Assembly (NCBI GenBank): GCA_964016885.1 | Contig: OZ024741.1 | Span: forward strand, 75,764,001 to 75,828,000 | Direction of reading: 5' to 3' | Length of the DNA: 64,000 nt | Origin: Eledone cirrhosa | Lineage: Eukaryota | In this document: in pieces, positions 2,230 through 36,870 of the stretch | Layout of the letters: every line of letters begins with the position of its first letter | How positions within the stretch are numbered: the stretch's first letter is position 1 | Translations under genes and position numbers: made by a program | Notes under the pieces: model-generated | Database searches by the model: none | Told to the model about the DNA's origin: nothing | Seen by the model: the letters and a program-made list of their open reading frames with translations, nothing else

Positions 2230-5050
2230 CATCATCATCATCATTTTACGTCTACTCTTCCCTGCTTGCAAAGGTGGGACGGCTCTTATTCAGCACAGCA
2301 TATCTCCACTTGTCACGGTCCTTCGTCATCTCCACCGTGAGCTTCAGCGATCTGAGGTCTGTTCTCACCACCTCCGCCCATGTTTTTCGTGGTCTACCTC
2401 TACCACGTCTTCCTTCAACTGGCATTTCCTGGCACTTCTTCACCCATCGGTCACCCTCCATGCGCATCACATGTCCATACCACCTCAGTCTCCTCTCTCG
2501 CACACTACATTCTATCCCTCTCAGACACAGTTTCTCTCTCAACACATTCATGCTGGGTCGTTCACGCACATTGACACTGCATATCCAACTTGCCTCATTT
2601 CTCTCCAGCCGTCGCATATCCTCTGCAGTTGCTGCCCATGTCTCATCACCATGCAGCATCACGCTCCTCACACAGGCATCATATAACCGGCCTTTCGTAC
2701 GCAGGGAGAAACCCTTCTTCGTCAGCAGAGGAAGCAGCTCCCTAAACTTCTTCCAACCCGTCCTTATTCTAGATACTATGGCCTCGGAACACCACCCTCC
2801 CATGCTAATCTGATCTCCTAGGTACCGGAAGCTATCCACCACTTCTATAGCACCCACCTGCATTTGAAAAATGTGTCGATCAATGCGACTTCTACTGTCT
2901 AATTTCCCTGTACATTTACTGAATACATATTTCTCCCTACCTGTTAGTTTGCCTGCTATCCCGCTACATCTCTTGTGTACCCAGGATCTGCATTGTGTGC
3001 ATTTTATAGAATTTATGCCAGTTCCTTTTCTGCATATCGAACATGGCCATTTCCCTGACGGAATCAGAGTTTTGTCCTCTTTTCTACTCATCAACACTTT
3101 TGTCTTAGTTAGGTTCACTTTCAGTCCTCTTGCTTCCAACTGCTGTTTCCATAGCCAGAATTTATTCTCTAGCTCCTCTACTGATTCTGCTATAAGAAAC
3201 AGATCGTCAGCATAGAGAAGTTCCCATGGACAGCCAGTCTTAAACTCCTCTGTTATGGCTTGGAGGACTGTAATGAACAAGAGCGAGCTGAGGACCGAAC
3301 CTTGATGTACTCCTACTTGTATCTGGAATTCCTCACTAAACTCCATTCCTACCCTGACTTTACTGACAGTACTTCTGTACAAAGTTTGCACTGTCCTCAC
3401 AAGCCATTCCTCAACACCTAGCTTCCTTAGGGACCACCAGATGACAGATCGGGGTACCCTATCAAAGGCCTTCTCTAGGTCAACAAAGGCTAAGTATAGT
3501 GGCTTATTCTTCTCTAAGAACCTCTCTTGCATTTGTCTCACCAAGAAGAGGGCATCTGTTGTACTCTTGCCAGGCACAAAACCAAACTGCATCTCATCTA
3601 GTTTGACCCTTTCTCTAATTAGTTGTGCTAAAATCCTTTCTGCCACTTTCATAACCTGATCTATCAGTTTTATACCCCTATAATCGCTCCTCTCCAAAGC
3701 ATCCCCTTTACCTTTGTAGCAATTTATGAGAATACTGCTGCACCAGTCTTTGGGTATGACACCACTATATATAGCCTGATTGATGATGCGTGCAACCAGT
3801 TTAGTGCCTACGTCCCCTGATGCCTTCAGCATCTCAGCAACTATTCCCGATGGTCCGGCCGCCTTACCATTTTTCATTTCCCTCTTGGACCCTATATTCG
3901 TCAATCTCAATAGCTGGTCCCTCTACCAAGGATAATTTCTCTCTCTCCCATTCGTTCTCCACATTCATCAGTCTCTCATAATGACATTTCCAGGCCTCCT
4001 TTTTCTGGTCATTCGTGACACTAAGTACACCGGCATCATCCCGGACACATTTATCTCCAACAACATCCTGATTTGCATTGACACACTGCCTTGCAATGTG
4101 GAACACCGCACGCCTCTGATCTTCCCGTCGCAGAACATTGGCAAACCTCCTACTCTCTGCCTCCCTGCGTGCTAAGTACACCTGACGTCTAGCTTCTCTC
4201 TTAGTGGCTGTATATTCTTCCCTACTCCCACCCTTTTTCCAAGCCTTCCATGCTAGTCTTTTGTCTCTAATAGCCTTATCTACTGTGCTGTTCCACCACC
4301 AGGTCACTCTCTGTCTGGTTGGAGCTCTGCTCCAGCCACAGGTTTCATCAGTAGCCTGCAGCAAGTTGTTACGTAAGAACTTCCAGTTATTATCTATGTC
4401 ATACGTCTCTAAATCGTCTTCTTTTTCGTCATATACATCTTGAAGGGCTTTCCTAAATTTGTATTTTAGTGAAAGGTCTTTTAGCTTCCAGACCTTTCTT
4501 CTCCACACCTTCCTATATGTCTCATTCCATCTCTTGCTTACTGAGATATCACTAACAACTAACCTATGCTGTGGGACACATTCTTCCCCAGGGTATGCCT
4601 TGGTATTAGACACTATCTGCCTGTCCCGCTGCCTAACTAGCAGGAAGTCAATCTGGCTTATGTGCTCACCAGATTTGTAGGTTATTAGGTGATTGGCAGG
4701 TTTCTGGAAGTTTGTGTTGCAAATAGTCAATGTACTCGCATCACAAAATTCAAGAAGTCTCACTCCTTCTTCATTTCTTGAACCGTAACCGTGCCCACCA
4801 TGTACCCCAGTGTAACCATCCTGGAGCTGTCCAACATGACCATTGAAGTCTCCTGCTAGCATAATGATGTCTCCGTCCTCTGTCATTGTGGTTGTTTGCA
4901 AAAGTTGCTCATAAAAGCAGTCTTTCTCATCTTTGCCTAGGCCTGCTTGGGGAGCATAGACCGAGATGATTGTCAGTAGTCTCCTACCTACAACTAATCT
5001 AAGCTTAATTATTCGATTACTAACTCGAACTACCTCTATTGTTTTATTGA
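2224..5050 (-). mobile_element. RTE LINE (APE endonuclease + RT), 5'-truncated and frameshifted, very short 3' UTR
   Basis: ORF 3864-4901 has GDFNGHVG, QIDFLL and QHRLVV; ORF 2252-3910 has FVDLEKAFDRV, GVHQGS, YADD and GRPRKTW; (GAT)n tail at 2225-2243. Confidence 0.95.
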
Positions 5051-5172
5051 TATATATATATATATTACCGGCAGTACTGATACAAAATCAAAATCATGTC
5101 AACTGTTGACTTTTCCCAGTCCAGTCCAGTTCAGTTTTTATATAATAATAATAATAATTGTTTGCTTTACGC

Positions 5173-9157: not shown

Positions 9158-11772
9158 CACGGTCAGAAATAGACAAGCCCGGAAACAGAGGCCAACCTGG
9201 AGAAGAAAGATCTGGAAGCTGAAAGTCCCCTCAACCAGTAACAGATTTAAAAATATTTTACTCAACGCCTACGACAGTAAAGAAGAACAGATAGAAACAT
9301 TTAATGTAGAAGAGAACTGGGAGTTCCTAAAAAATAATTTACTAGAGGCGACGGATGAGGTCTGTGGCTGGAGTAAGACCTCAAGCAGGAGGAGAGTGAC
9401 TTGGTGGTGGAACAATAAGGTAGATGAAGCAGTTAAGGCCAAGAGACAGGCATGGAAAGAATGGAAGAATGGCGGGAGCAGGGTACATTACATAGAGACC
9501 AAGAGGGAAGCTAGGCGACAAGTATACTTAGCTAGGAGGGAAGCATAGGATAGAAAATTCAAACATGTTTTGCAACGTGAGGACCAGAAACAGGAGGTAT
9601 TCAAGATTGCGAGGCAGTGTGTCAGAGATAGTTGTGATGTCATTGGAGAGAAGTGTATCCAGAATGATAAAGGTGAGCTTGCCCTCACAAGTGCTGAGAA
9701 GAAAGATGCATAGAAGAGTCATTATGATAGATTACTAAATGAGGAGAATGCATGGGAAGAAGAGACCATACCCCAAGTAGACCCTATAGAGGGACCAGCA
9801 GTACAAGTCAGCAGCAGCGTAGTAAGTAAGGCAATCAAAGATATGAAGATGGGGAAGGCAACCGGTCCATCGGGTATAGCTGCCGAGATGCTGAAGGCAT
9901 CTGGGTCTGTAGGTCACACTATAACCACACGTATTGTTAACCAGGTAATACTAGAAGGTGTCATACCAAAAGATTGGTGCAGTAGCATCATTGTCAACTG
10001 CTACAAAGGTAAAGGCGATGCACTAGATAGAGGAAACTATAGAGGAATAAAGTTGATGGACCAGGTCATGAAAGTAACAGAAAGAGTTATAGCACAGCTG
10101 ATTAGGGACCGGGTGAAAATAGACGAGATGCAATTTGGGTTTGTACCAGGAAGAGGCACCACTGATGCCCTCTTCCTTGTGAGGCAATTACAGGAAAAGT
10201 ACCTAGCTAAAAGTAAGCCACTCTACTTGGCATTTGTCGACCTTGAGAAAGCCTTTGACAGAGTTCCACGTGCTGTAATCTGGTGGGCTCTTAGAAAACT
10301 AGGAGTAGATGAATGGCTTGTGAAAGCGGTACAAGCCATGTATAGGGGAGCAGTCAGCAAAGTTAGGATTAGCAATGAGTATAGCGAGGAATTTAGCGTA
10401 CAGGTTGGTGTACACCGGGGCTCTGTTCTTAGCCCTCTCCTGTTCATCATAGTCCTGCAGGCAATAACGGAGGAGTTTAAGACCGGATGCCCATGGGAAC
10501 TCTTGTATGCTGATGACCTCGCACTCATAGCTGAATCTATGGTAGAACTAGAGAATAAATTCCAAACTTGGAAGCAAGGACTAGAAAGAAAGGGTCTCAA
10601 AGTCAACATGACTAAGACTAAGGTCCTTGTAAGTAGACGAGAAAACAGAACCCAGATCCCCTCAGGGAAATGGCCTTGCTCAGTATGTAGGAAAGGTGTA
10701 GGTAGGAACTCCATTCTCTGCCCCAAATGCAAACAATGGGTACACAAGAGATGTAGCGGGATCTCAGGAAGCTTAATTAAGAATGTAGGATTCACATGCA
10801 GCAGCTGTGCTGAGACAGCAAGCAGCAAACAGCCACAGGAAACAAGTACCACCAATCTCTGGGAGGGCCCTGTAGAAACAGTAGACAGCTTCTGCTACCT
10901 AGGTGACCGAATTAGCAGCGGAGGTGGGTGTTCAGAAGGTACAATAACTAGGGTAAGAACGGGATGGAAGAAGTTTAGGGAACTACTACCACTGCTAGCT
11001 GCAAAAGGCTTCTCCCTCAGAATGAAAGGCAGACTGTATGATGCGTGTATCCGAACAACGATGTTGCATGGTAGTGAGACCTGGGTGCTGAAGGTGGAAG
11101 ACTTACGGAGATTAGAGAGAAACGAAGCCTGCCTGCTCCGATGGATGTGTAACAGTAATATACGTGAACGACAAAGCATAAATGAATTTAGAGAGAGACT
11201 GAGCATAAGAGGAATCAAATGCTGTGTGCAGGAGAGGCGGTTGCGCTGGTATGGACATGTGATGCGTATGAAGGATGACAGCTGCATAAAAAGGTGCAGA
11301 GCACTAGAAGTTGATGGAAACAGTGGAGTGGGGAGACCCAAGATGACCTGGGATGAGGTGATAAAAGCCGACCTTACCCAATTACACCTCTCAAAGACAA
11401 TGACACACGACCGTGACTTCTGGCGTCACGCAGTAATACAGAGTACCCGACCTCCCATGGGTACAAGCTGAAGCATATAGACAATATGACCCCACACCCC
11501 CCACCGCAAGGTGGTCGTGGAGGTGCCACGGCAAAAAAGCACCCAGCCCACACTGTAAAGTGGACGTGTAGACGCCACGAAAAAGCACCCAGCACCCACT
11601 GTAAATGAGGTTGGTGTTAAGAAGGGCATCCAGCTGTAGAAATCAAGCCAAATCAGTTCCTGTATGAGCAAGGCATGGTCAGCCGACCAGACACTGCCCA
11701 CAACAGGACAACCCGTCTAACCCATGCTAGCGTGGAAGAACGGACGTAAAACGGTGATGATGATGATGATGA

Positions 11773-15463: not shown

Positions 15464-15665
15464 CTATATTATATATAAATATATATATATATGTATATAT
15501 ATGTATATGTATATATATGTATATATATATATATGTACGTATATATATAAATATATATATATGTATATATATGTATATATATATTTATATGTACGTATAT
15601 ATATATGTATATATATATGTATATATGTACGTATATATATAAATATATATATATATATATGTACG

Positions 15666-15696
<31 letters not shown>

Positions 15697-15733
15697 GTAC
15701 GTATATATATAAATATATATATATATATGTACG

Positions 15734-15765
<32 letters not shown>

Positions 15766-15795
15766 CGTATATATATAAATATATATATATATATA

Positions 15796-15828
<33 letters not shown>

Positions 15829-15844
15829 GTACGTATATATAAAT

Positions 15845-15898
<54 letters not shown>

Positions 15899-15916
15899 GT
15901 ATATATATAAATATAT

Positions 15917-15990
<74 letters not shown>

Positions 15991-16012
15991 GTATATATAT
16001 AAATATATATAT
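15464..16012. repeat. Compound (TA)n microsatellite with recurring gtacg and aaa interruptions
   Basis: Direct reading. Confidence 0.95.
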
Positions 16013-19000
16013 GAAGATAGACATAGAATATTCGAAAATATTCTGTATGTTTATAATAAACATTTTGAAGACCTAATTGCTATAGAATAGAATACGTCAC
16101 GTATTACAATTAGATTCTCGACAAAAGCAAGGGAAGTAACCTACGCGTTTCATTCTTATTAGAAATCTTCAGGATTACATATCCAGTGCTTTTATCGAGA
16201 ATGACACAGCTAGAGACTTATAGAATACTTAGCTGTGTACAGGAACTGGTTTGAAAGAGCGGTTGCCGGTCCGGCAGAAATTAGAAATTGGATTAAATGC
16301 TCTGAAATAGCGATATATATGTGAAGATAGACATAGAATATTCGAAAATATTCTGTATGTTTATAATAAACATTTTGAAGACCTAATCGCTATAGAATAG
16401 AATACGTCACGTATTACAATTAGATTCTCGACAAAAGCAAGGGAAGTAACCTACGCGTTTCATTCTTATTAGAAATCTTCAGGATTACATATCCAGTGCT
16501 TTTATCGAGAATGACACAGCTAGAGACTTATAGAATACTTAGCTGTGTACAGGAACTGGTTTGAAAGAGCGGTTGCCGGTCCGGCAGAAATTAGAAATTG
16601 GATTAAATGCTCTGAAATAGCGATATATATGTGAAGATAGACATAGAATATTCGAAAATATTCTGTATGTTTATAATAAACATTTTGAAGACCTAATCGC
16701 TATAGAATAGAATACGTCACGTATTACAATTAGATTCTCGACAAAAGCTAGAGAAGTAACCTACGCGTTTCATTCTTATTAGAAATCTTCAGGATTACAT
16801 ATCCAGTGCTTTTATCGAGAATGACACAGCTAGAGACTTATAGAATACTTAGCTGTGTACAGGAACTGGTTTGAAAGAGCGGTTGCCGGTCCGGCAGAAA
16901 TTAGAAATTGGATTAAATGCTCTGAAATAGCGATATATATGTGAAGATAGACATAGAATATTCGAAAATATTCTGTATGTTTATAATAAACATTTTGAAG
17001 ACCTAATTGCTATAGAATAGAATACGTCACGTATTACAATTAGATTCTCGACAAAAGCAAGGGAAGTAACCTACGCGTTTCATTCTTATTAGAAATCTTC
17101 AGGATTACATATCCAGTGCTTTTATCGAGAATGACACAGCTAGAGACTTATAGAATACTTAGCTGTGTACAGGAACTGGTTTGAAAGAGCGGTTGCCGGT
17201 CCGGCAGAAATTAGAAATTGGATTAAATGCTCTGAAATAGCGATATATATGTGAAGATAGACATAGAATATTCGAAAATATTCTGTATGTTTATAATAAA
17301 CATTTTGAAGACCTAATCGCTATAGAATAGAATACGTCACGTATTACAATTAGATTCTCGACAAAAGCAAGGGAAGTAACCTACGCGTTTCATTCTTATT
17401 AGAAATCTTCAGGATTACATATCCAGTGCTTTTATCGAGAATGACACAGCTAGAGACTTATAGAATACTTAGCTGTGTACAGGAACTGGTTTGAAAGAGC
17501 GGTTGCCGGTCCGGCAGAAATTAGAAATTGGATTAAATGCTCTGAAATAGCGATATATATGTGAAGATAGACATAGAATATTCGAAAATATTCTGTATGT
17601 TTATAATAAACATTTTGAAGACCTAATCGCTATAGAATAGAATAGAATACGTCACGTATTACAATTAGATTCTCGACAAAAGCAAGGGAAGTAACCTACG
17701 CGTTTCATTCTTATTAGAAATCTTCAGGATTACATATCCAGTGCTTTTATCGAGAATGACACAGCTAGAGACTTATAGAATACTTAGCTGTGTACAGGAA
17801 CTGGTTTGAAAGAGCGGTTGCCGGTCCGGCAGAAATTAGAAATTGGATTAAATGCTCTGAAATAGCGATATATATGTGAAGATAGACATAGAATATTCGA
17901 AAATATTCTGTATGTTTATAATAAACATTTTGAAGACCTAATCGCTATAGAATAGAATACGTCACGTATTACAATTAGATTCTCGACAAAAGCTAGAGAA
18001 GTAACCTACGCGTTTCATTCTTATTAGAAATCTTCAGGATTACATATCCAGTGCTTTTATCGAGAATGACACAGCTAGAGACTTATAGAATACTTAGCTG
18101 TGTACAGGAACTGGTTTGAAAGAGCGGTTGCCGGTCCGGCAGAAATTAGAAATTGGATTAAATGCTCTGAAATAGCGATATATATGTGAAGATAGACATA
18201 GAATATTCGAAAATATTCTGTATGTTTATAATAAACATTTTGAAGACCTAATTGCTATAGAATAGAATACGTCACGTATTACAATTAGATTCTCGACAAA
18301 AGCAAGGGAAGTAACCTACGCGTTTCATTCTTATTAGAAATCTTCAGGATTACATATCCAGTGCTTTTATCGAGAATGACACAGCTAGAGACTTATAGAA
18401 TACTTAGCTGTGTACAGGAACTGGTTTGAAAGAGCGGTTGCCGGTCCGGCAGAAATTAGAAATTGGATTAAATGCTCTGAAATAGCGATATATATGTGAA
18501 GATAGACATAGAATATTCGAAAATATTCTGTATGTTTATAATAAACATTTTGAAGACCTAATCGCTATAGAATAGAATACGTCACGTATTACAATTAGAT
18601 TCTCGACAAAAGCAAGGGAAGTAACCTACGCGTTTCATTCTTATTAGAAATCTTCAGGATTACATATCCAGTGCTTTTATCGAGAATGACACAGCTAGAG
18701 ACTTATAGAATACTTAGCTGTGTACAGGAACTGGTTTGAAAGAGCGGTTGCCGGTCCGGCAGAAATTAGAAATTGGATTAAATGCTCTGAAATAGCGATA
18801 TATATGTGAAGATAGACATAGAATATTCGAAAATATTCTGTATGTTTATAATAAACATTTTGAAGACCTAATCGCTATAGAATAGAATACGTCACGTATT
18901 ACAATTAGATTCTCGACAAAAGCAAGGGAAGTAACCTACGCGTTTCATTCTTATTAGAAATGTTCAGGATTACATATCCAGTGCTTTTATCGAGAATGAC

Positions 19001-20150
19001 ACAGCTAGAGACTTATAGAATACTTAGCTGTGTACAGGAACTGGTTTGAAAGAGCGGTTGCCGGTCCGGCAGAAATTAGAAATTGGATTAAATGCTCTGA
19101 AATAGCGATATATATGTGAAGATAGACATAGAATATTCGAAAATATTCTGTATGTTTATAATAAACATTTTGAAGACCTAATCGCTATAGAATAGAATAC
19201 GTCACGTATTACAATTAGATTCTCGACAAAAGCTAGAGAAGTAACCTACGCGTTTCATTCTTATTAGAAATCTTCAGGATTACATATCCAGTGCTTTTAT
19301 CGAGAATGACACAGCTAGAGACTTATAGAATACTTAGCTGTGTACAGGAACTGGTTTGAAAGAGCGGTTGCCGGTCCGGCAGAAATTAGAAATTGGATTA
19401 AATGCTCTGAAATAGCGATATATATGTGAAGATAGACATAGAATATTCGAAAATATTCTGTATGTTTATAATAAACATTTTGAAGACCTAATCGCTATAG
19501 AATAGAATACGTCACGTATTACAATTAGATTCTCGACAAAAGCAAGGGAAGTAACCTACGCGTTTCATTCTTATTAGAAATCTTCAGGATTACATATCCA
19601 GTGCTTTTATCGAGAATGACACAGCTAGAGACTTATAGAATACTTAGCTGTGTACAGGAACTGGTTTGAAAGAGCGGTTGCCGGTCCGGCAGAAATTAGA
19701 AATTGGATTAAATGCTCTGAAATAGCGATATATATGTGAAGATAGACATAGAATATTCGAAAATATTCTGTATGTTTATAATAAACATTTTGAAGACCTA
19801 ATCGCTATAGAATAGAATACGTCACGTATTACAATTAGATTCTCGACAAAAGCAAGGGAAGTAACCTACGCGTTTCATTCTTATTAGAAATCTTCAGGAT
19901 TACATATCCAGTGCTTTTATCGAGAATGACACAGCTAGAGACTTATAGAATACTTAGCTGTGTACAGGAACTGGTTTGAAAGAGTGGTTGCCGGTCCGGC
20001 AGAAATTAGAAATTGGATTAAATGCTCTGAAATAGCGATATATATGTGAAGATAGACATAGAATATTCGAAAATATTCTGTATGTTTATAATAAACATTT
20101 TGAAGACCTAATCGCTATAGAATAGAATACGTCACGTATTACAATTAGAT
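16013..20150 (-). repeat. Tandem array of a 310-bp unit (13 full copies plus ~103 bp), each with an HHR; retrozyme-like
   Basis: Unit starts at 16013, 16323, 16633, 16943, 17253, 17563, 17878 (5-bp aatag insertion in copy 6), 18188, 18498, 18808, 19118, 19428, 19738, 20048; copies differ by 0-3 changes. Confidence 0.97.
16136..16178 (-). ncRNA. Minimal type I hammerhead ribozyme (first of 13 in the array)
   Basis: Minus strand: GTAATC-CTGAAGA-tttct(aata)agaat-GAAA-CGCG-TA-GGTTAC; predicted cut between 16142 and 16141. Confidence 0.85.
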
Positions 20151-20180
20151 ATATTAGATATATATATATATATATATACG

Positions 20181-22222
<2,042 letters not shown>

Positions 22223-25200
22223 GCAAAAGTTTTATATAAAATTGTTGGGTTACAACAAGTAAATATTTTATAACTGATATAAAGCACTCGACAAGTTTTG
22301 GAGTAGATATACGATATTAAACAAATGGAAACTATATTTATAAAACCATATTTATTTCAATATACATATTTCGGGGATACCATATTAAAAATATGGCATG
22401 CCCTCTTCAGATAAAATACAATATATAAACATTTTATAAATAATTTTGACGTACCATAAATATTGACCAACCGTTATGTAAAAAGTTGGTTTGGTAGTGA
22501 GATGTTTACAAATATTTAGTGTTAAGCACAGTTAAAAAGAAAGACAGAGAAAAAGAAGAAATGTATGTAAAGAAAAACAGAGAGAAATAGAGAGAGATAG
22601 GGGAGAGAGAAATAGTGAGGAGGTGAAAAAAGAGAAGCAGTTGAGGCAACAGATGAATAATAATAATTCATCATACAAATTGAGAGATTTAGGAGGGAGG
22701 GTGTACTGTAATTATTTAGTTATAGTGTTAAGGACAGTTGGGGAGGGGGCGGAGAGAAAATAAGAAATGAAGAGAAAACAGAGAGAGAGAGAGATAGATG
22801 TGGGGGGAGAATAGAGGTAGCCCAAATAATAATAATTATATATGGGGAGGTGAGAGAAATAGGAGAGAAATGAGAGAGAAACAAGAGAGAAACTCGAGAG
22901 GCAAAGTTAAAACAACCGATACATAGATTTCATCATATATAAAGAGGGAGGAGAAGAAAGAGCTATATCTAGAGAGAGGGATGATAGATTTACATCTTTA
23001 CGTTATGTCCTATCAATTTGAATTATCAATTCATATGAATTGGGTAATATAATGTAAATATCAATATTCATGAATGAGACATAGATATATAATGTGTGAA
23101 AATAATTTTGCTCAACAATGACCATATGTTTAGTTTAAAAATTCTGAGGTCGATGTACCAAAACTGAGATAAAACTTCAAAAAATACGGAAATATACATA
23201 CACATGCATATGCATTTTCCGGAAAAGGAAAGAAAGAGAAAAAGAGAAGGTCATCTCAAGTTCTAGTTGACACTATAGACATACCCATGATTTTACGTGA
23301 TCAACTCTGTAATTTCTTGTTTCACAGAAAAAAAATTTTTCTTTGTGTTATAAAAGATTTTACTATATATATATATATATATACATAAAAAAATATATTA
23401 ATATTCTTGCCCTCACATACATGATTATCGTTCATGTATAGAATATTATGCATATCTGTAACATATCCAGAACTATACCCACACATACATATATATATAT
23501 ATGTATGCACACGTATATGTACAGATATCAATATATCAGCACAGAGATATCAAAACGTTAAAAATATTTTCATCACTCCCTAGAGTATCTCGGGCCGTAA
23601 AAAACACAGTATGCCCCCCATATCAACCACAGAAATCTACCCTTCCAATTTATCTGACAATATATTGCCAAGTTCATTAGAAGCAATCAGAATCAAAAAG
23701 CAAACAAAAAATCAAAAATTATTCAACAAAACTCATTTAGCAGAAATCATTTAAAGGATTTAGGAGACCCTGTTGTTCTACGGATGCTTTTATATTTAGT
23801 ATAGAAGTTTATCTAGCGTAAAATTTATTCAATAGATTTATTCATCTACATTTTAGGGTAGTTTAATTACATCATTAGTATATATTTATGAAGAAGGTTT
23901 AAAAGAAAAAGTTGAAGGAATCGAAAGATTTATCGTCAGATTTCATACATTAATTAAATATCCTAATTAATTATGCTACATTTTAAATTTATATTTATAT
24001 TTAAACGTTGAGTTCAATCTATGTCTGCAGCAACTGAATAAATTGCTCCTTAAATTAAGGGAATTTTTTTGGATTTTAATATAAAGAATATCTCCTCCAC
24101 ACAGAGGTCACATGTCTCAGATGAGGAATTAAAAGGAATCCCTCTTGAGACAATATTCCAAAACATCGAATACCCAACGTTATCATGTTTAAGTTGCCAG
24201 AGTAAGCCTGATAGTGAAGTTGAGGATTTTTTGTTTGGATCTGTGAAAGAATTCTTATGATTATTGTAGCGAAGTTTAAATTCTGTCGAGGTGGAACCAA
24301 CGTAGTTAAAAGAATTTAAGTTAGTTTTAACATTACAATTGTATATTATATTTTTAACTAAGCAATTGTTATTTAACGGACATTTAGATTTATTTCTACA
24401 GTTACAGTTGTTTAATTGAATATTGTTTTGGCCATTATCGGTATTTTGGCTAGGTTTTAGATTCCTATTATTTATTCTGTTAATATTTTGTGCTAAATTT
24501 TTGGTGGACGAGTATGTTAATTTTATAGTATGTCTATTAAAAATTGAGTGATATTTATGCGTTCTAGGGAAGCGTTTGTCAAGAGCATTAAAAAATAGTT
24601 TAGCAATGTGGGTTTTAATATTTAGTGAGAAAGGGGGGGCAAACCATATTATATTTCTAGTTCTATTTCTTTTCCGGCTTTTGGAATTATTGTAATGTTT
24701 TCTATTATAGTTGTTAAAGTTGTTACTGTAACTAAAATTGTTATTATCTTGGTTAGTTTGCCTATTATTATCGATGTACTTAATTTTATCACTATATCCT
24801 GCTCTAGCTAACGCTTCATTGTAATACTGCGCTTTTTCATCGAAAATATTTTTATTAGATGAAATTCTTGAGATACGTTCTTGAACAGAGTTCACTATAG
24901 TATTTTTAACAGATCTGGGGTGATTAGAGTTAAAATTGACATAATTCAAGTTTTCATTTAGTTTGTGAAATGGATAGTGAAGACATGTGTTGAGATTTAG
25001 TGTTACATCTAGGAAATTGAATATTCTATGGTTATTCTCTATTTCTAATTTTAGATTAAGGTAATTAAAAAATTGTATAATTTGTTTTCTTTTCCTATTT
25101 AGTTCAGAGTTATTATTTTCAATAAGTAAAAGCATGTCATCACGATATAATCCTCCGGTTACAGCAGGTATTTTTCTATGCAGCGAATTAATTATAAATA

Positions 25201-25540
25201 GGCCCACAAGGTCCGTTACCTGAGCTGAGTCAGATGATCCCATAGTGATGTCGAAATTATTATCTCTATCTGCCCTAGTCCATAGTTGGTTATTAAATTC
25301 TATCAATGTTTTCCTTGCCGATAATATAATGTGCATTTCATTGCTAGTTAGGTCTGTATGTTTGAATGCGTAATTTAGTGCCTTATTCAGTAGATTAGGG
25401 GTAATAGATGAATAGTAGTTAGCAATATCTAGTTGAATAAATTTATTATTATTGTTATATTTAATTTCTTTAAACCACTCAATAACCTCACCGGTCCCCT
25501 TCCATAAGTTTAAGTTAGGTAAATTATGTAAGTACATAAA
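22223..25540 (-). mobile_element. Penelope-like element, 5'-truncated, with long 3' region ending in an HHR-bearing pseudo-LTR
   Basis: ORF 24050-25537: QLDIANYY, MGSSDSAQVTDLVG, YRDD, NFLDVT, CNC...CPL, IIY...YVG (GIY-YIG), CDLC; C-terminal CCRH lies in a shifted frame near 24020. Confidence 0.92.
22355..22416 (-). ncRNA. Minimal type I hammerhead ribozyme in PLE 3' pseudo-LTR
   Basis: Minus strand: ttttat-CTGAAGA-gggcatgccatatt(ttt)aatatggtatcccc-GAAA-TATGTA-TA-ttgaaa; stem I is imperfect. Confidence 0.68.
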
Positions 25541-25563
25541 AAGTACATAAGTAAATTATGTAC

Positions 25564-25725: not shown

Positions 25726-25771
<46 letters not shown>

Positions 25772-25972
25772 TTAGTTATACTATTTATGGTTATGTAAAT
25801 ACAAAACCTTAAGCAGTTGTAAGTATTTTACACACACCCTAAATAGTGGTAGGCAGTATTGTATTACTACCTTATTACCAGTAAGTTAAGTAGCTCAATG
25901 TAAAAACATCAGATGATTTACAGAGCAGTTATATGAAATATAAGAATCAAAGAACTGTTCAAAACATTATTG

Positions 25973-26019
25973 TGCTTACAGCTGTTTCCTCCAAACCGAG
26001 GTTTGGATTCTTCGGAGCA
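25973..26019 (-). ncRNA. Minimal hammerhead ribozyme with U4C core (identical copies at 29565-29611 minus and 30951-30997 plus)
   Basis: tgct-CCGAAGA-atccaaacc(tc)ggtttggag-GAAA-CAGCTG-TA-agca. Confidence 0.75.
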
Positions 26020-26603
26020 ATTTATTAATGCATGGACAGTTATATGACCTCCTTTTCAGCCGAGAGACATACCAATACATATTCAAACATTGATACATAT
26101 TCAAACATTGTGGGTCAACATTCATTACAGAATTTAGAGTGGCAGTACACACTTCGAGATTACATTTATATTAATAGGTACAATCAAAAATCAAAGATAT
26201 AGGTTAAAATACAACATAAAGATAAGCGGTTATATAGTGAAAATGTTATATGTGTGGCACGCATGTGCGTCTTGTTTATATAGTGTGGCAGAGAGAGATA
26301 TGTGTGGTAGAGGCACTTAGGTAGGTAAATAAGAGTGTTAGGTTGGTAGATCTGGTGGCAAATTCTTTATATGATTGATATAGTCTGTGTGTGGAGAAAT
26401 ATTATAAGCATTAAAGATAGTGCAAGCATTAAAAGTGTTATAAGTAATGGAGATGCACAGCGCAGGGATGTCAAGTATTTCATGTACTTCGGCATTTTCA
26501 TGGTCAGGGGAGTATATTTTTCGATTATATGCCCTTCACATAATCCACGGCAATCCAGTTAGAGATCGTAGTCTGGTGTTCTTTAGTTCGATACAGGAGG
26601 TTG

Positions 26604-29315
26604 TTACGTTTCTAGAAACGCCATTGAATACCGCCCGGAAGTGTGTGTGTGGCTAAGGGGAGTTAATGCATGCGGGGAGGTAACTCTGGGGTTTCTGTAT
26701 CTAGCCATTAAAATGTGTCCCAATATAGACCCTAGGTTACGGTTGGAGAAGATAATATTGTGTGTCTCTAGTATACAGAGGTTACAGAATTTATTAGGTG
26801 GTTTGTACGAGGTCGCGCTTCCTATCACTTCCCATTTGAGTGTGTATGGTTTATTTTTAGATTTTAGATAGTGTATGTAGCTAGAAAGTGAGGTGGAGTT
26901 GGCTAGGCTGTGCTTTTTGAACGAGTGGATGTGCGAATTATATCTGATTTTGAAGCAGTTAGAAGTGGAGCCTACATAGGTTTCTGAAGAGTTATTAGTC
27001 GTGACGGTGCATGAGTATATGACATCCTTGGTTAGGCATTTTTTATCTAAAGGGCAGGTTCTATTAGCTCTACAGTTACAATTATCCTGTGCGTTAGTCC
27101 GCTGGTTATGATGTAATGCGGAAGTCCGTGTGGTAGATATAGGATTTTGGGTGTTCGGGTTGACAACCCTGGTGTTATTACTTATACTAGTGTTATTTCT
27201 ATTGTTACTGCCGTTGCTATGGTTGTTTGCTACAGTGGTATTTAGAGGGTTTGCATCCCGTTGTGATTTTGTTTGTTGGAAGTAAGAACTAATTTTACTA
27301 TTATTGCTGCTAGCTATGTGGTATGCTAAGTTAGGCGTCGTAGAGTATGAGATTTTAATGGTGTTTTTGTTTAAGAGGTTGTGGTACTTATGTCCTAGAG
27401 GGAAGTTTTTATCTAGTAGTGAGAAGAAAGCCCTAGGTATGTTGGTGGAGACATTTAGGTTGAAAGGAGGGTTGAAAAATGTATTATTTCTTCTTCTATT
27501 TTTGCTTTTAGTGTTTGGTGTGTTGCTTCCTCCTAAGGCCCCACAGTAATTTCCATGGTAATGGTTACTTCTGGTGGCACCCTCCGCTTTGGTGTACTTG
27601 TGGTTGCTATTCCTATTATTAGATTTCCTCATGGACATGTTGTGCGAGATGATGTTGTAGCTATGTGTTTTCTTAGGTAGGAACTCAATTTCTATATTAT
27701 GGCCGGAGCTAGCTAATGCTTGATTGTAATATTGTGAGTTTTTGCTAAATATGTTTGCGTCATAGGACAGACTAGAGATTCTATTGGACACCCCCTTAGA
27801 GATAGAGTTTAATATTGATCTAGGGTGATTAGACTTGGTATCTACGTAAATAAGTTTCTCATTAGGCTTGTGGAAAGGTGTATATATTTTTGAGTCTAGG
27901 TATAGTGTGGCGTCTAGGAAGTTAACATTTTTAGTGTTTTTGTCCATGGTGATACTAAGGTTAAAGTTTTTGAATGTCTTATGCAGTTGTTTTCTAGTTC
28001 TTTCTATATTAAATTTTTTATATTCTATAAGTAGAAGTGCATCATCGCGGTACAAACCACCGTTGAGGTAAGGGAGGTCCTTATGGATTTCGTTGAGGAG
28101 GTATAGGCCGACCAAATCCGTGACCTGCGCCGAGTCACTAGATCCCATGGTTATGTCGAAGTTGTTGTGCGTATCCTTGCGTGTCCATAGTTGGTCCTCA
28201 AAGGTGATTATGGTTTTACGGGCCGCAAGGATGACATCAACCTGGGCTCTAGTCAGGTCGCTATTGGTCATGGCCATGATAAGTGCCTTATTTAATAGGA
28301 TAGAGGAAATAGAGGTGTAGTACGAATTGATATCAAATTGAATAAATTTTTTGTTCTTATTATTCTTGATATCCTTGAACCATTCAATTACTTCACCCGT
28401 ATTTCCCCATTGTTTAAGGTGTATCTTGTGTTTAATTTGTGGGATGATTTTATCCAAAATCTTCTTGCTGATAATACCAATGTCGGACTTGGAAGGGCAG
28501 ATAAGTCTTATCGTGGGGTTGCTGATGAAGTTCTCCTTATGGTCCTTCAGAGAGAATCTAGGGGGGTTCGGAGTGAAAGGTTGTGTATGCCTCTGTAGTC
28601 CTAGTTTAGACACTATATTATAGCCCTCTACATTAATATCTTCTAAGTTTTTCAAGGTGGTTTTTTTGTAGCTTTTATGTAGTTCATTATATATAAACTT
28701 TCTATAAGTATTATAATCTAGGCTGTATATGTTATTAGTTTTATCTGCGTGTACAATAATTTTATTANNNNNNNNNNNNNNNNNNNNNNNNNNNNNNNNN
28801 NNNNNNNNNNNNNNNNNNNNNNNNNNNNNNNNNNNNNNNNNNNNNNNNNNNNNNNNNNNNNNNNNNNNNNNNNNNNNNNNNNNNNNNNNNNNNNNNNNNN
28901 NNNNNNNNNNNNNNNNNNNNNNNNNNNNNNNNNNNNNNNNNNNNNNNNNNNNNNNNNNNNNNNNNNNATTACTAGTTTTGAATCCATTAATAGAAGTGTT
29001 AAGTTTGTTTAAGAAGGTGTTGCTTTTAATATGGTGCTTATTGTATTTAATGTTCTTAACTAGTTTAACTAGGTCATTTTCAAAGGAGTTAAGTAGAGTG
29101 TTATGAGGGGGGCTTTTAAAGGTTTTAAAGCCGAAGGAGTCAAAATTGTTAGTATTATTCAAGTTGTTAGATTTGTTTCTATCATAATGGAATGTCCTCC
29201 ATCTCACTCTATTGATAAATGAATTTACACTGTTGATCAGCAATTTCTCATATGTATTCCTGGATGGTATTGGTATGTTCTTGGTTGACATGGGGAGTTG
29301 GTCTTTGATTAGCAT
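26604..29315 (-). CDS. PLE reverse transcriptase + GIY-YIG endonuclease (spans a 200-N gap)
   Basis: STKNIPIPS, ADKT, LKDHK...RLI, QFDINSYY, MGSSDSAQ, YRDD, NFLD, CNC...CPL, VIY...YVG, CNLC. Confidence 0.88.
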   Translation of the reverse strand: MLIKDQLPMSTKNIPIPSRNTYEKLLINSVNSFINRVRWRTFHYDRNKSNNLNNTNNFDSFGFKTFKSPPHNTLLNSFENDLVKLVKNIKYNKHHIKSNTFLNKLNTSINGFKTSNXXXXXXXXXXXXXXXXXXXXXXXXXXXXXXXXXXXXXXXXXXXXXXXXXXXXXXXXXXXXXXXXXXXNKIIVHADKTNNIYSLDYNTYRKFIYNELHKSYKKTTLKNLEDINVEGYNIVSKLGLQRHTQPFTPNPPRFSLKDHKENFISNPTIRLICPSKSDIGIISKKILDKIIPQIKHKIHLKQWGNTGEVIEWFKDIKNNKNKKFIQFDINSYYTSISSILLNKALIMAMTNSDLTRAQVDVILAARKTIITFEDQLWTRKDTHNNFDITMGSSDSAQVTDLVGLYLLNEIHKDLPYLNGGLYRDDALLLIEYKKFNIERTRKQLHKTFKNFNLSITMDKNTKNVNFLDATLYLDSKIYTPFHKPNEKLIYVDTKSNHPRSILNSISKGVSNRISSLSYDANIFSKNSQYYNQALASSGHNIEIEFLPKKTHSYNIISHNMSMRKSNNRNSNHKYTKAEGATRSNHYHGNYCGALGGSNTPNTKSKNRRRNNTFFNPPFNLNVSTNIPRAFFSLLDKNFPLGHKYHNLLNKNTIKISYSTTPNLAYHIASSNNSKISSYFQQTKSQRDANPLNTTVANNHSNGSNNRNNTSISNNTRVVNPNTQNPISTTRTSALHHNQRTNAQDNCNCRANRTCPLDKKCLTKDVIYSCTVTTNNSSETYVGSTSNCFKIRYNSHIHSFKKHSLANSTSLSSYIHYLKSKNKPYTLKWEVIGSATSYKPPNKFCNLCILETHNIIFSNRNLGSILGHILMARYRNPRVTSPHALTPLSHTHTSGRYSMAFLET
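28768..28967. other. Assembly gap (200 N)
   Basis: Run of N. Confidence 1.
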
Positions 29316-31035
29316 ATTGGCAATATTATATGTCAGCTCAACGATATGGAGCAGTTAATAGTATTAGTTATACTATTTATGGTTATGTAAATACAAAACC
29401 TTAAGCAGTTGTAAGTATTTTACACACACCCTAAATAGTGGTAGGCAGTATTGTATTACTACCTTATTACCAGTAAGTTAAGTAGCTCAATGTAAAAACA
29501 TCAGATGATTTACAGAGCAGTTATATGAAATATAAGAATCAAAGAACTGTTCAAAACATTATTGTGCTTACAGCTGTTTCCTCCAAACCGAGGTTTGGAT
29601 TCTTCGGAGCAATTTATTAATGCATGGACAGTTATATGACCTCCTTTTCTGCGGCAGGTGTGACAACATCCACCCACTTGAACGGCACTACACCGCTCTA
29701 AGGGTAATTTGAGCATGAATTGATCGGTTGGATAGTGTTGTGCAGAGGAAACACCTTCCTTAGACGGATGTAAAATGATTTAATCGAGTAGCGCAGTTGA
29801 CCAGTAGGACCGGACTGCTGAGCGCAGTGGGTGAATGCATTCCAACTGCCGTGCGGGTTATACGTATATGGATGATCTGACGGTCAGAGAGGGGTCGCGT
29901 GGACTGCGGATTGACCTTTGGCCGGCCTGGGGATAATTATCTTTCGACATCAAATGTAGCAAGCGATGACCCAGATCTTACCAGAGATCATCGGGTCCTG
30001 AAGCAAGCCTGCAATCACCGCGCCTGGTCATATGAGCAGACTACAACCACAGAGATCATTAATTTAGAATCCTCGCTCATCATCTATAATTTCCATTTGT
30101 GGCACCTTAAGATGGGTTAATCCACCATAATAATAATATGATCACCTTCAGCATAACTTAATTAAACTACTCTATAGTTAATACACTTTATGCTTTAAAA
30201 ATCTCTCTTGGAAGATGCGCATCACCATAGAATTTAGGGTCTATATTGGGGACACATTTTAATGGCTAGATACAGAAACCCCAGAGTTACCTCCCCGCAT
30301 GCATTAACTCCCCTTAGCCACACGACACACTCCGGGCGGTATTCAATGGCGTTTCTAGAAACGTAACAACCTCCTGTATCGAACTAAAGAACACCAGACT
30401 ACGATCTCTAACTGGATTGCCGTGGATTATGTGAAGGGCATATAATCGAAAAATATACTCCCCTGACCATGAAAATGCCGAAGTACATGAAATACTTGAC
30501 ATCCCTGCGCTGTGCATCTCCATTACTTTATAACACTTTTAATGCTTGCACTATCTTTAATGCTTATAATATTTCTCCACACACAGACTATATCAATCAT
30601 ATAAAGAATTTGCCACCAGATCTACCAACCTAACACTCTTATTTACCTACCTAAGTGCCTCTACCACACATATCTCTCTGCCACACTATATAAACAAGAC
30701 GCACATGCGTGCCACACATATAACATTTTCACTATATAACCGCTTATCTTTATGTTGTATTTTAACCTATATCTTTGATTTTTGATTGTACCTATTAATA
30801 TAAATGTAATCTCGAAGTGTGTACTGCCACTCTAAATTCTGTAATGAATGTTGACCCACAATGTTTTGAATATGTATCAATGTTTGAATATGTATTGGTA
30901 TGTCTCTCGGCTGAAAAGGAGGTCATATAACTGTCCATGCATTAATAAATTGCTCCGAAGAATCCAAACCTCGGTTTGGAGGAAACAGCTGTAAGCACAA
31001 TAATGTTTTGAACAGTTCTTTGATTCTTATATTTC

Positions 31036-32445
<1,410 letters not shown>

Positions 32446-32459
32446 ATATAAAATATGTA

Positions 32460-35400
32460 ATATTTCGTTTCTGAATTTGTTTAGCAAGATTCTTTATCTG
32501 AAATCGTGTGTTGAAACCGATATTGTTATACTTTGGGAGGGTCATGTTGCCAATAAGAAACACACGCACCAGTTGCTTTCACTTCAATTTATTATATATT
32601 TATAAATTTATAAATTTACAAATCTACAAACTTATAAATTTCTGGTTGGTTGGTTGGTTCCACAACCAGATAGTTGTTTATATATAGTCATAGTCCTTTT
32701 GTCACACACTCTGTGACCTCTTCAGTGACTGGGGATCCCTTTCTTTGTTTCTGTGCCTTTCCTTTCATCTGTCCTACGCCATTTTGTTTCTGTGTGTGTT
32801 GTGTGCTCAGTTTGCGCATGCGCCACATCCGGGTGTCTGTGTGTGTTTGTGTGTGTTTGTGTTCATTTATCTATTTGTTTATTTATTTACATGTTTTTGG
32901 TTGGTTGTTTGTTCTATGTGTGTGTGTGTTTTCATTTTGTCCTTAATTGTTAGTTGTGATGTTGCTGTTCCACTCATATTTTCTATTTAATTTTGGTTGT
33001 AATTCTTTTATGCTTACTGCCTCTGTAATTTGCATAAATATTGCATCTTTTCTGTGTGTGGATTCTATTTTTATTTCTATGTTCTCTAATTTACCCCTGT
33101 GTTCTATCTTAGCATGTTGGTAGAGCACAGATGATTCTTTATTATCTTGAAGGTCTCGCCAGTGTTCATTTATTCGTTCACCTATACTACGAGCTGTCTC
33201 ACCTATGTACACTATATTTTTGTTTCTACATTGTCCTTCAGTACATCTTATGCTATACACTACATTTCTGGTTTTACAGTTAATATGGGGGCTTATTTTA
33301 CAGGTTATACATTTCTTATCTATACATGAGGGTCTTTGGAACGGGTATGTCTTGCTAATAAGTGTTTTTACGGAGGTACCTGGTCTTTCTACTATCTTAA
33401 TATTGAGTTTATGTTTATTTAGGGCCCTTCTAAATTTGTAGGCTAGTTCGCCTCTAGGGGTTGTATTGATGAACATTACACTCTGGTATTTATTGCTATC
33501 ATACCATGAGTTTATTCTATTGGCCTTGTTCCTAGTTCTTTCTATTCTATTCCAAAATTTGCTCCTATACAAGGGACAGGTCCCATTTATGTCATTATTT
33601 ACCATTTTTTCCCATTTGGTTCTGGCTCCTCTATACACTCTGATTCTATCTCTCTGATTGTAGCCAGAGAACTGCATACGGTGGATGAAGTGTTGTATGT
33701 GTCTCTCTAGTTCTTCGGGGTTGCACATGCGGGACACATTTCTCATCACCCGTACCAAATCCGCAATCAGTATGTTGATTTTGGTATGGTCCGAAATGGC
33801 CGAGTTTCGGTGGATCAGATGTTTGGAAGTCATGGGTTTGGCATAATGGGAATGGAGGATTTGTTTTTGGTTGTTAATGGTCTCTAACCAGTGCTCTGTG
33901 TCTAGTACAGGTAATCGATGGTTGGGGTGTCTACTTGGGTAGTCTAACTAGTAACTCTAATGCTCTGGTGGATGGAGTTTGCTATTTGCTGGATGCTTTC
34001 CATTGTGTTTTTCTCTAGTTCCTGACTGTTCTTTAGTGGGGGTGTCTTAACTACGATGTTTATATCATCTACGTAGCGGGAGTACATTATCAGGGTTAAG
34101 CTGTCTTCTAATTGTTCTTTAAGTTTTTGTTTAAGTCTACTGTCCCACCATACCATGAATAAGTTAGCTATGTCGCCTGCAATGCTAACACCAATGGCTG
34201 CTCCTTCCTCTTGGGCATATGTTTTACCATTAAATTTGAACATATGTTCCTTAAGGGTTAATTTTATGCTGGCCCCTACCGCATGTGCAATCATTTTCTT
34301 CAGTTCATCGTGGTTTTCGGGTGTCCGTATGGCTCTGGTCCACCCGTTCCATCTATCTGTGTGGGTTTTCTTGGCCATTGAGGTAATGGTAGGTGGTCTA
34401 CCTCTTGCTGGTGTTGTAGGGCACAGGTTGCTAAGGTCATAAGTGTCTAGGTAACTATTACTATGGGTAAGCTTAAGTAGAAGTCCCAGCTCACTGGTAT
34501 CAATCCCACGGAACTCAACCTTGTTCTTGCTGATCATTTCTACGCATTTCTCCACAGCAAAATCTACGTCAATAGATGGATACAGGGACACAACATCCAT
34601 ACTGCCTATTATGCAGTTTGTTAGGTCCCCAGATCGGTTACTCGCGCCGATTCTGCTGAGGAGGTCCTCCGTGCTGTCACATACATCTGGGGACATCTCA
34701 ATGATGGGGCGTATGATCAGGGAGAGGAAGTAGGACAGTCTGTAGTTACTAGCAATGTTAGCTCCACAGACTGGCCGTGTTGGTGGTCCCGCGACAGGGT
34801 CACAGCCCGTTTTATAGTCTTTTCGAAGCCCATACAACGCCAGCACGTCATTGTTCCAGGCCTGGAAGTTGTTGGCAGTCCTTTTGTTCGGCTGCATTAT
34901 ATTCGTCCACATCACCATATGGGCATTGAGGGATTTTTCTCTATCCTCATGCTCCTGTAGTGTTACTTCTCTTGTGTTAGTGATGTGGGTTGCATTGCCT
35001 GGATGTAGTTTGGCAGGCTGTCAACCGACATTCTGCCAGACTTGTCTGTTGGAAAGCATGCTATCTCTCCATTACGCGAGCGCTGCATGAGCTTACGCAA
35101 GCCATTTGCAGATTTTTCTCCCAGTTGCTGGGCCTCTATTCTATTATGCTTCTTGCTATACTGTTCTATAATATTTCTAAGTTCGGATTTAGCTATACTA
35201 AATTGTGCTTCTGTTTGTTCATCGACCTGCGACGGCAACTGCGTGCGTTTGTTAAATGGTAAAGTCGTGGCGTGGACTCGTCGCAGGTCGAATGATTTAT
35301 CGGAGGGATTATAAAACGGAGAGTTCCAGGTTGCTGCTTTATGTGTTCTAGTGCTATTGTTATTGTTAGTTGTGTTGTTTCTATTTCTATTTCCACCGAC

Positions 35401-36870
35401 AGCCTCGTGGTTGTTTCTATGTCTCTCATAATTACTCCTGTCTCTTTCCACTGGCTCAATGTTGTTATCTACCCTATTTTGTGTGTCTGTGTGTTCGTCT
35501 TGGTTATTCTCTTTGTCCTTAGTCTCCCATCTCCTTTTCCTTTTAATCTTAATACTTTCCCTTATTTCTCTGATTTCTGTGCTACTGTCATTACTTGTTT
35601 TCTGTGTCTGTGTGTTTGTTAAGATCGTGGTGGTGGTGAGAGGCATTGAATGCGTGTGTGTTGTTGTTGTTGATGTGTGTTGTTGTTGTCTCCGTGTGTG
35701 TTATCGTTGTTGTGTGTTTTGTTATTGTTGTTTGTGTCTGCGTGTCTGTTGTTGTTGTTTCTGGGTATGTTGCTATTGTTGTTGTTGTTGATGTGTGTGT
35801 TGTTGTTATTGTTGTTTGTGTCTGTGTGTCTGTTGTTGTTGGGATGTGTGTTGTATATGTGTGTGCGTATATTGTTGCTTTTGTTTTTGATGCTCCAGCG
35901 TAGTTTTGTAAATGATTTTTCTATTTCTGACAGACAACTAATCATATTTACCTTCTTGAATGTCGCAAATTTGGGCGGCAGACATAACACAGACATTTCA
36001 TCATTATCTATTTTTGCGTTCCCATAAATGTTGGTGTTTTTGTTGTTGAACTCTTCTGATAATGAGGTGTCGGCCATGTTGATACCGTCAATTTTGCGGG
36101 ATATCTATTGGTATACTCTATAGTATCCTGATTTAGCTTTGCCTGTTTAAGCCACTTTAGTTTCCTGTTAAAGTACTTATCACATTCTTGAGTAATGTAC
36201 TGTTCTTCGGGGCGTATAAGGCTTATAAATATTAGTTTCTCTGTTGGTGTGGTGATTCTAGCTAATTCTTGTATTAGGTTACGCTTTTGTTTTTCTTGAT
36301 GACTTAATTCTCTATAGATCTTCTTTTTTATGTTTAGAATTAAAGTTCGTTTTAGCCTATCTGCTTGTTTTTTGGTGAGTTGTAATCTTCTAACGTCGGT
36401 ATTGATGGTGTTGGTGTAGATTCTGGAAGTGGCGCACAGCTTTATGAAGGATAGTTGTCGAGATGTTATGGTTTTTCGTAGACAACAGAACATGGTGGTT
36501 TTCAGTATCTTGTTAGCCTGGCTAAGGCTTACGATATTTCGTTTCTGAATTTGTTTATCAAGATTCTTTATCTGAAATCGTGTGTTGAAACCGATTTTGT
36601 TATACTTTGGGAGGGTCATGTTTCCAATAAGAAACACACGCACCAGTTGCTTTCACTTCAATTTATTATATATTTATAAATTTATAAATTTACAAATCTA
36701 CAAACTTATAAATTTCTGGTTGGTTGGTTGGAACCAACCAACCAACCAGAAATTTATAAGTTTGTAGATTTGTAAATTTATAAATTTATAAATATATAAT
36801 AAATTGAAGTGAAAGCAACTGGTGCGTGTGTTTCTTATTGGCAACATGACCCTCCCAAAGTATAACAATA
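32460..36870 (-). mobile_element. Penelope-like element of a second lineage, frameshifted, with terminal direct repeat and 5' inverted copy
   Basis: ORF pieces 36008-36643, 35619-36077, 34963-35646 (PTDKSG), 33944-34918 (SMDVVSLYPSI, GAAIG, RYVDD), 32943-33833 (VVY...YIGET); 32460-32657 is near-identical to 36534-36730; 36732-36870 is inverted. Confidence 0.9.

Follow-up and report, generated by a model that had tools for sequence, protein, structure and literature searches.

How does a short non-coding repeat with a ribozyme in every unit come to stand as a long tandem array inside a microsatellite? The question is raised by an array at positions 16013..20150 of the window, by which we mean the whole 64,000-nucleotide stretch of Eledone cirrhosa DNA analyzed here (assembly GCA_964016885.1, contig OZ024741.1, 75,764,001 to 75,828,000 of the forward strand). 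A first-pass annotation had read the array as a chain of hammerhead ribozymes of the retrozyme type, whose RNA circles would be copied back into DNA by the reverse transcriptase (RT) of a Penelope-like element (PLE), and had called for a genome-wide search for other arrays. That search was productive: the array turns out to be one of many insertions left by a young family that is spread through the genome, with three lineages and no fewer than 5,300 units. Judging from the sequences of many such insertions, we think it probable that this retrozyme family is written into (TA)n by a borrowed PLE RT that runs repeatedly round a predicted 310-nt RNA circle.

Tandem Repeats Finder called the repeat at 16003-20150 with a period of 310 bp, 13.4 copies, and 99% matches. 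Units start from 16013 at 310-bp spacing, one unit being 315 bp long; the 12 full 310-bp units differ by a mean of 1.6 bases (99.5% identical), and the GC content is 34.5%. As had been noted, the unit lacks a gene, the longest ATG open reading frame (ORF) encoding 29 amino acids and the longest stop-free stretch 59. The minus-strand motif GUAAUC-CUGAAGA-UUUCUAAUAAGAAU-GAAA-CGCG-UA-GGUUAC is exact in 12 of the 13 units. Its first copy lies at 16136..16178, with the predicted cut at 16142|16141, where the annotation had correctly placed it; copies 2-13, also on the minus strand, start at 16446, 16756, 17066, 17376, 17691, 18001, 18311, 18621, 18931, 19241, 19551, and 19861. Copy 10 (18931..18973) carries the change 18962 C>G, that is, G8>C in the core, and is predicted to be inactive; in PMC11167929 a G8C mutation abolishes hammerhead cleavage. 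The array has the marks of a retrozyme without long terminal repeats (non-LTR retrozyme): tandem units of 150-450 bp, a hammerhead in at least two consecutive units, low GC, no coding capacity, self-pairing, and dispersal across many loci. These tandem features and a palindromic helix III uphold the assignment to retrozymes with dimer-type hammerheads.

Exact 41-nt ribozyme copies in the 3.0-Gb genome number 952 for the lineage of the window array and 4,188 for its sister lineage, which differs by six changes; a further, nested lineage has 169 units (35-nt pattern), and all three counts are floors. Singletons occur at 0.59 per kb in the sister lineage (set D below) against 1.25 in the other (sets A-C), a comparison that, like that of lineage sizes, involves two lineages only. 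Three older colinear families have units of ~330-375 bp that are 72-82% similar to the window unit over phases 59-212, phase 1 being the first base 3' of the predicted cut. Three of four public sequencing runs yielded one contig each, 340 nt long (310+30) and closing into a loop, and the contig differences are mostly markers of the sister lineage in the Eledone genome. We set the closed loop aside as evidence of a circle, because tandem DNA would give it as well. None of the runs listed as carrying the repeat is an RNA run, which has no bearing on expression.

If the arrays were made by a retroelement, their ends should carry its signature. We read the ends in four sets of loci: the window and 35 others, biased to full units (set A); 20 of the 22 new C1 loci among the first 100 exact matches listed, the least biased set (B); 16 long arrays, minus three from one segmentally repeated C14 cluster (C); and 20 sister-lineage loci (D). 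RNA-sense 3' ends of non-edge arms fell at one of two sites, S1 or S2, in 55/61 cases in set A, 35/35 in B, 18/20 in C, and 37/37 in D. The pooled count is thus 108 of 116 arms in 69 loci plus 37 of 37 in 20 later loci, or 145 of 153, with end windows that were defined after inspection of set A. The last phase before the TA run is mostly 129-131 at S1 and mostly 163-166 at S2, the sites being ~34 nt apart, and ends at either site nearly always abut (TA)n. Both fixed ends are also visible as loose ends in one independent public run.

Many loci consist of two inverted arms joined 5' to 5' (15/20 in set B). Every classifiable inverted pair combined S1 with S2 (20 in set A, 15 in B, 6 in C, and 17 in D, 58/58 in total), and none was S1+S1 or S2+S2; seven additional inverted pairs had one unclassed end. 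The 5'-to-5' junctions show overlaps of 1-6 nt in 24 of 41 cases, and all 41 are distinct, none being common to two loci. The 5' ends are uniform over the unit (chi-square p 0.34), and 3 of 108 lie at the cut site versus 2.8 expected.

The window array is a single minus-strand arm of 13.4 x 310 bp, with an RNA-sense 3' end of the S1 type at 16012/16013 and its 5' end at 20150. S1 (phase 129-139, AUAUAUAU, complementary to the target) corresponds to 16313..16322 on the minus strand and is the site used at the array's 3' end. The "tail" between S1 and S2 (phase 163-166, ~16287) occupies 16287..16322 on the same strand, S2 serving the second arm at two-armed loci. The strand-less (TA)n target extends over 15465..16012 on the left and 20149..20349 on the right, where the interrupting motif is the same as on the left and a target duplication is not readable.

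PLEs leave inverted 5'-truncated copies and a tail of 30-40 bp at one end (PMC8557442), and in AT-rich DNA a PLE protein cuts the two strands and extends both of them, using a pair of adjacent RT start sites to which the tail is tied (PMC11167929). The Eledone family behaves as a non-autonomous PLE does: its 3' ends are fixed, one end bears a tail of 30-40 nt, 5' truncation is variable, and there are an inverted second copy and a microsatellite target. From the fixed ends, the inverted arms, and these published traits, we conclude with hardly any doubt that the family arrays are PLE-type retro-insertions. The insertion ends of the Eledone family show target priming, and the insertion record supports PLE mobilization directly. 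The earlier proposal that a PLE RT copies the concatemer thereby finds its support in the two fixed 3' ends, the inverted arms, and the (TA)n target. Few loci of the older families are readable for the end rule; they gave three S1+S2 pairs and one S1+S1 pair. At one further locus (L064:4117-4725) the insertion lies in (ATA)n rather than (TA)n, with the same two ends.

What template did the enzyme copy? The cut site was crossed seamlessly 405 of 406 times, with up to 28 ribozyme sites in one arm, and in 32 of 41 loci both arms crossed it. These crossings and the lack of a 5' pile-up at the cut site exclude a cut linear RNA read to its end as the main template. Arrays are also clonal: marker 20 is pure in 68 of 69 loci, array-wide variants occupy both arms, and young long arrays are nearly uniform (no singletons in the 13.8 units of L236, two in the 18.2 units of L228). 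The variant G212C fills all 18 units in both arms of L228 and fills no other array; its 30 exact genome matches comprise 17 in L228, 4 that alternate in L241, and 9 that are scattered. Such privacy held for one of three array-wide variants tested. Each multi-locus variant lineage nonetheless needs a founding step that turns one mutated unit into a whole two-armed array, and a monomer circle supplies this step directly. The sequences of the insertions favour a circular monomer template, with the predicted 310-nt monomer running from cut site to cut site on the minus strand (16142..16451; phase 1 at 16451, phase 310 at 16142). As a separate observation, two unit types alternate over most of a 10-unit array at L241:1278-4359, as a dimer circle would give. 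An imprint of A-to-I editing was not found in the arrays (A>G 0.13 per site, T>C 0.21).

Does the ribozyme look capable of making such a circle? Its core (CUGANGA / GAAA / UH with C3-G8) is that of a canonical metazoan type I hammerhead. So are its helices, a helix I of 6 bp, a helix II of 4 bp above a U.U pair, and a short helix III formed by the palindrome ACGCGU, when compared with the sizes in PMC4209133. The minimal hammerheads of PLEs, which according to the same paper have no helix III, 7-8 bp in helix II, and 4-5 bp in helix I, do not match. The G10.1-C11.1 pair is missing, since the first pair of helix II is U.U. The same U.U stands at the helix II base in 14 of 17 copies of one older family, G-C is present in a minority of another, and an A-U variant occurs in public sequencing runs. 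A loose type I descriptor had one match among 20,000 dinucleotide shuffles of one unit, and an Rfam search returned nothing at the gathering score, a weak HH9 match alone being seen (16.1 bits, E 0.55).

All pairings that the annotation had listed are present in the sequence, and the minus-strand stem around the hammerhead is longer than claimed, with 16 bp (16114-16129 with 16187-16202) including one G-U. The monomer fold scores -71.6 as a linear and -69.0 as a circular molecule (z -4.2 and -4.6), and 0 of 200 shuffles were as stable. The fold cannot tell the strand, because the plus strand folds equally well (z -4.3 and -4.5). The predicted monomer is branched, 56-57% paired, and not rod-like.

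Inherited changes were informative. All six array-wide changes in the ribozyme keep its structure, as opposed to 5 of 23 singletons (Fisher p 0.001), and five of the six lie on one lineage. In the three older families helix III is a palindrome of different sequence (21/24, 12/17, and 4/12 copies), C3-G8 is swapped for U3-A8, and the enclosing stem is kept in other letters. The inherited ribozyme changes point, indirectly, to selection on ribozyme structure.

Other hammerheads were seen as well. Four more type I motifs, three of them identical, lie at window positions 39655-39712, 39888-39930, 42804-42846, and 43595-43637 and belong to other families. A different tandem hammerhead repeat with a period of ~515 bp, likewise with U.U at the helix II base, is found at L063:4900-7000.

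Which PLE could provide the enzyme? Candidate helpers had been placed a few kb from the array, a suggestion that did not hold. Each of the four window PLEs has termini of its own, and none resembles the unit in sequence (local alignment scores 18-24 versus shuffle means of 20-23, with a control at 92). The one at 25770-31035 is young and two-armed (98-99% matches), with a 200-N gap inside its ORF and a hammerhead-like motif with a CCGAAGA core; its two ends are ~160 nt apart, versus 34 in the retrozyme. The other three, at 22222-25555, 32440-36880, and 58030-59476, are of different families, all adjoin (TA)n, and two have a hammerhead-like motif of their own. By its motifs, the protein of the young element would be an RT with a GIY-YIG-like C-terminus, and the clade labels presumed for the four frames have the same basis; Pfam returned nothing on these frames, and a PDB search with one window PLE protein gave no match. 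Homology between the unit and the pseudo-LTR (pLTR) of an autonomous PLE was found neither in six PLE termini nor in the scanned loci, 40-64 of thousands of candidates being scored per search.

A better candidate lies elsewhere in the genome. Of 64 frames scored in a Neptune-like family (L272-L300), at least 60 contain no stop; the family has a mean divergence of 0.37% among 29 copies and a 784-aa frame with RVT_1 and GIY-YIG. Its ends are 40 nt apart, all six readable two-armed copies combine S1 with S2, and its ribozyme lies 126 nt from S1, versus 130 in the retrozyme. This intact family is the most likely helper, as a candidate: age, target, and geometry match, and sequence does not. The window PLE termini and the Neptune-like and Hydra-like families each have their own pLTRs. 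Apparent hybrids between an array and a PLE ORF (L038, L040, L066, L109, and L133) were examined and rejected as mere junctions into older neighbours; the elements involved are several, unrelated, and often decayed, and include a CR1. Another small element, whose hammerhead carries the U3-A8 swap in its core, was noticed 200 bp from the array (20350-20545) and at 57620-57985. It has 17 identical motif matches in the loci scanned, its tail resembles the Neptune-like pLTR, and it may be the Neptune-like family's own non-autonomous partner.

These data can be assembled into a model. The minus strand would be transcribed, two hammerheads would associate by way of the palindrome in helix III and release monomers, and a host ligase would close the circle. 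An RT-GIY-YIG protein, probably a dimer, would cut both (TA)n strands; one DNA end would prime at S1 through AUAUAU complementarity and the other at S2, 34 nt away. Each complementary DNA (cDNA) would go 0.1 to ~20 turns round the circle. The two cDNAs would join 5' to 5', often by 1-6 nt of microhomology, or one alone would survive, as in the window array, and some arrays, the window array included, would grow later by local block duplication. A bolder version, which we put forward tentatively and regard as possible rather than probable, takes the two-armed locus as the fossil of twin rolling-circle reverse transcription. A PLE RT dimer on one ribozyme-made circle would prime both (TA)n strands 34 nt apart and lay down up to ~20 copies each way. 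Ribozyme quality would drive lineage success (the better-folding lineage being four times larger), and, the helper's own hammerhead having decayed, the ribozyme would serve the parasite only.

A number of observations weigh against the circular template, and part of them speak for its most serious competitor: a PLE-type insertion whose template is a linear multimer transcribed from a parent array and left uncut, with copying started internally at any unit and a weak or dispensable hammerhead. We consider this explanation unlikely. The lowest-energy uncut fold (ViennaRNA) mis-pairs the core, with a helix II probability of 0.06 and the open fold 3.6 kcal/mol higher, and the ribozyme lacks G10.1-C11.1; both the mis-fold and the U.U pair suit an uncut template. 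Two open folds with their intermolecular helix come out about even with the mis-fold (-0.3, again a ViennaRNA prediction), and the sister lineage's changes lower the predicted mis-folding penalty to 1.5 kcal/mol. That array-wide variants avoid the 11 core bases is, taken alone, not significant (0/24, p 0.42). In vitro, hammerhead mutants had no effect on insertion, and unprocessed RNA was the main substrate (PMC11167929), a preference that the linear explanation can claim; 8 of 9 frog dimers failed to cleave (bioRxiv 10.64898/2026.07.22.740005), and multicopy head-to-tail non-autonomous elements exist in Chlamys, a clade mostly without hammerheads (PMC8557442). The absence of a 5' pile-up and the seamless crossings fit an uncut linear template equally. 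Furthermore, two variants are not private: A295T is found in 169 units with many pure loci, and a 2-nt deletion in 77 units at 9 loci. Both of them therefore have arrays that could be pure parents; such pure multi-locus lineages again suit a linear parent transcript, as do loci of mixed haplotype. L032, L058, and L265 (at L265:3400-4600) mix haplotypes, and in all three the units nearest the inversion junction differ from the rest in both arms. Among the 19 longest arrays of sets A-C, ten have at least two variants in part of their units and seven have none. An autonomous element homologous to the unit was not found among the loci scanned, and the hammerhead of the Neptune-like pLTR reads GCAA for GAAA in 35/35 motifs, also with U3-A8, yet that family looks active. 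Against a linear parent transcript, on the other hand, arms could lose length but never gain it with each round of copying, and a new mutation would have to pass through a bottleneck of one unit before it could occupy both arms of a daughter. The assembly contains no pure parent for G212C, no arm extends into a parent's junction among the 41 distinct ones, and inherited ribozyme changes are biased to keep the structure.

Cleaved linear monomers, with an enzyme that jumps from the 5' end to the 3' end to make the tandem, would account for clonality and for selection on the ribozyme, and the occasional haplotype switches in L265 show that switching or conversion occurs. However, these switches are not at the cut site, 5' ends are no more frequent there than expected, and all but one of the 406 crossings proceed without a base gained or lost; we judge this route improbable. 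Slightly more so is the origin proposed for other families in bioRxiv 10.64898/2026.07.22.740005, in which a single solo Penelope terminal repeat inserts and then expands into a minisatellite by unequal exchange, without RNA circles. Local growth is real, as seen from a haplotype (C10T+T13A) that is private to the window array and recurs at every fourth unit, from the repetition of entire arrays in the C14 cluster, and from imperfect 2-8-unit periods in other long arrays. Yet most two-armed loci have multimers on either side of the inversion, some arrays reach 14-18 units with 0-2 differences, and each of the hundreds of separate insertions has 5' ends of its own. Least credible of all is an origin from a DNA circle or DNA rolling circle, or a window array whose length is an assembly artefact. 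The length is indeed known from the assembly alone, and one 200-N gap lies elsewhere in the window; the strict polarity relative to the ribozyme strand, the end rule common to an autonomous retroelement, and the recurrence of both ends as loose ends in an independent public run speak against it. The copying of a predicted 310-nt circle by a borrowed PLE RT thus remains the reading that we prefer.

How, then, did the window array reach its length? Its units follow the order A B C A B B C A B B C B B b, where C is the C10T+T13A haplotype, all three of whose matches lie in this array. In our reconstruction, three block duplications starting from ~5.4 units reproduce the variant order with each variant arising once; a strict rolling circle on a tetramer was also tried and fails at two units. 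The array was probably lengthened after insertion. Variants repeated in blocks are what a minisatellite shows, and local amplification is a secondary process in the window array that does not account for how the family arose. Other long arrays, too, show imperfect periods of 2-8 units, and we conclude that long tandems arise at insertion and that some are reshaped afterwards. As to the suggestion of a very recent event, a recent origin is supported, and the high copy number is not in itself a sign of it, the order being explained by three local block duplications. At L231-L233 (C14, 25.20-25.25 Mb), entire arrays, 11-25 units long and interrupted by microsatellite, are repeated in one orientation. 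This is a satellite being born from a retrozyme element, and the C14 cluster may explain the strand skew of 629 to 323 among exact copies. Elsewhere in the window, an LTR-element integrase fragment and several non-LTR reverse transcriptase frames (52544-53374; 2252-5087, 9714-11471, and 46334-50085; 40911-42347) are unrelated to the array.

Repeats of ~300 bp with type I hammerheads are also known from newt satellite 2 and Schistosoma Sm-alpha. The Eledone family adds a new member to the non-LTR retrozymes and does not constitute a new kind of system. It resembles the retrozymes of coral, mussel, and axolotl described by Cervera and de la Pena (2020, PMC7229834, which also mentions newt repeats) in its low-GC, self-paired tandem units of 150-450 bp with a type I hammerhead each and no ORF, found as dimers to multimers, and the amphibian dimer-type ribozymes of that paper share the short palindromic helix III. 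It differs in having U.U instead of G-C at the helix II base. RNA circles were shown there and the copying enzyme was hypothesized, whereas the Eledone family is known from DNA and its integration anatomy can be read. Xenopus retrozyme families are also tied to PLEs, as their non-autonomous derivatives (bioRxiv 10.64898/2026.07.22.740005), on the basis of pLTR homology and co-occurrence, and the birth of tandems by local amplification is discussed; the accessible text of that preprint contains no tail or inverted-arm analysis and names no mollusc, and its supplements could hold relevant families. In Eledone, by contrast, pLTR homology was not found among the termini and loci compared, and the tandem arises at insertion. 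Poseidon PAc (PMC11167929) and the clades of PMC8557442 share the AT-rich target, two RT start sites around a 30-40 nt tail, an inverted 5'-truncated second copy, and a hammerhead upstream of the start sites. Unlike those elements, the Eledone unit has no ORF, and each arm is a tandem of many turns. In vitro, neither start site of PAc was preferred on one strand over the other (PMC11167929), whereas the two Eledone arms always differ (58/58). Chlamys elements such as MRC1 are likewise non-coding, multicopy head-to-tail PLE parasites (PMC8557442), which differ in resembling the 3' end of their helper and in belonging to a clade mostly without hammerheads. Ribozymes are not mentioned in the accessible portion of PMC13282606. 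In the open literature, setting aside supplements, subscription journals, Repbase, and Dfam, we found no description of the Eledone family or of a reading of retrozyme insertion ends.

That PLE RTs copy animal retrozyme circles has been proposed since 2014-2020 on the grounds of co-occurrence, to which pLTR homology was added in 2026, and in the literature examined the integration step had not been read from insertions. The Eledone family is young and numerous enough for integration to be read, with two start sites, one per arm, many turns, and one haplotype per event, and it is an unusually clean test case for the hypothesized retrozyme mechanism. It supplies a testable enzyme (the intact Neptune-like ORF), two natural ribozyme alleles of differing predicted folding, and a 310-nt substrate, and it bears on how a telomerase-related RT reiterates its template.

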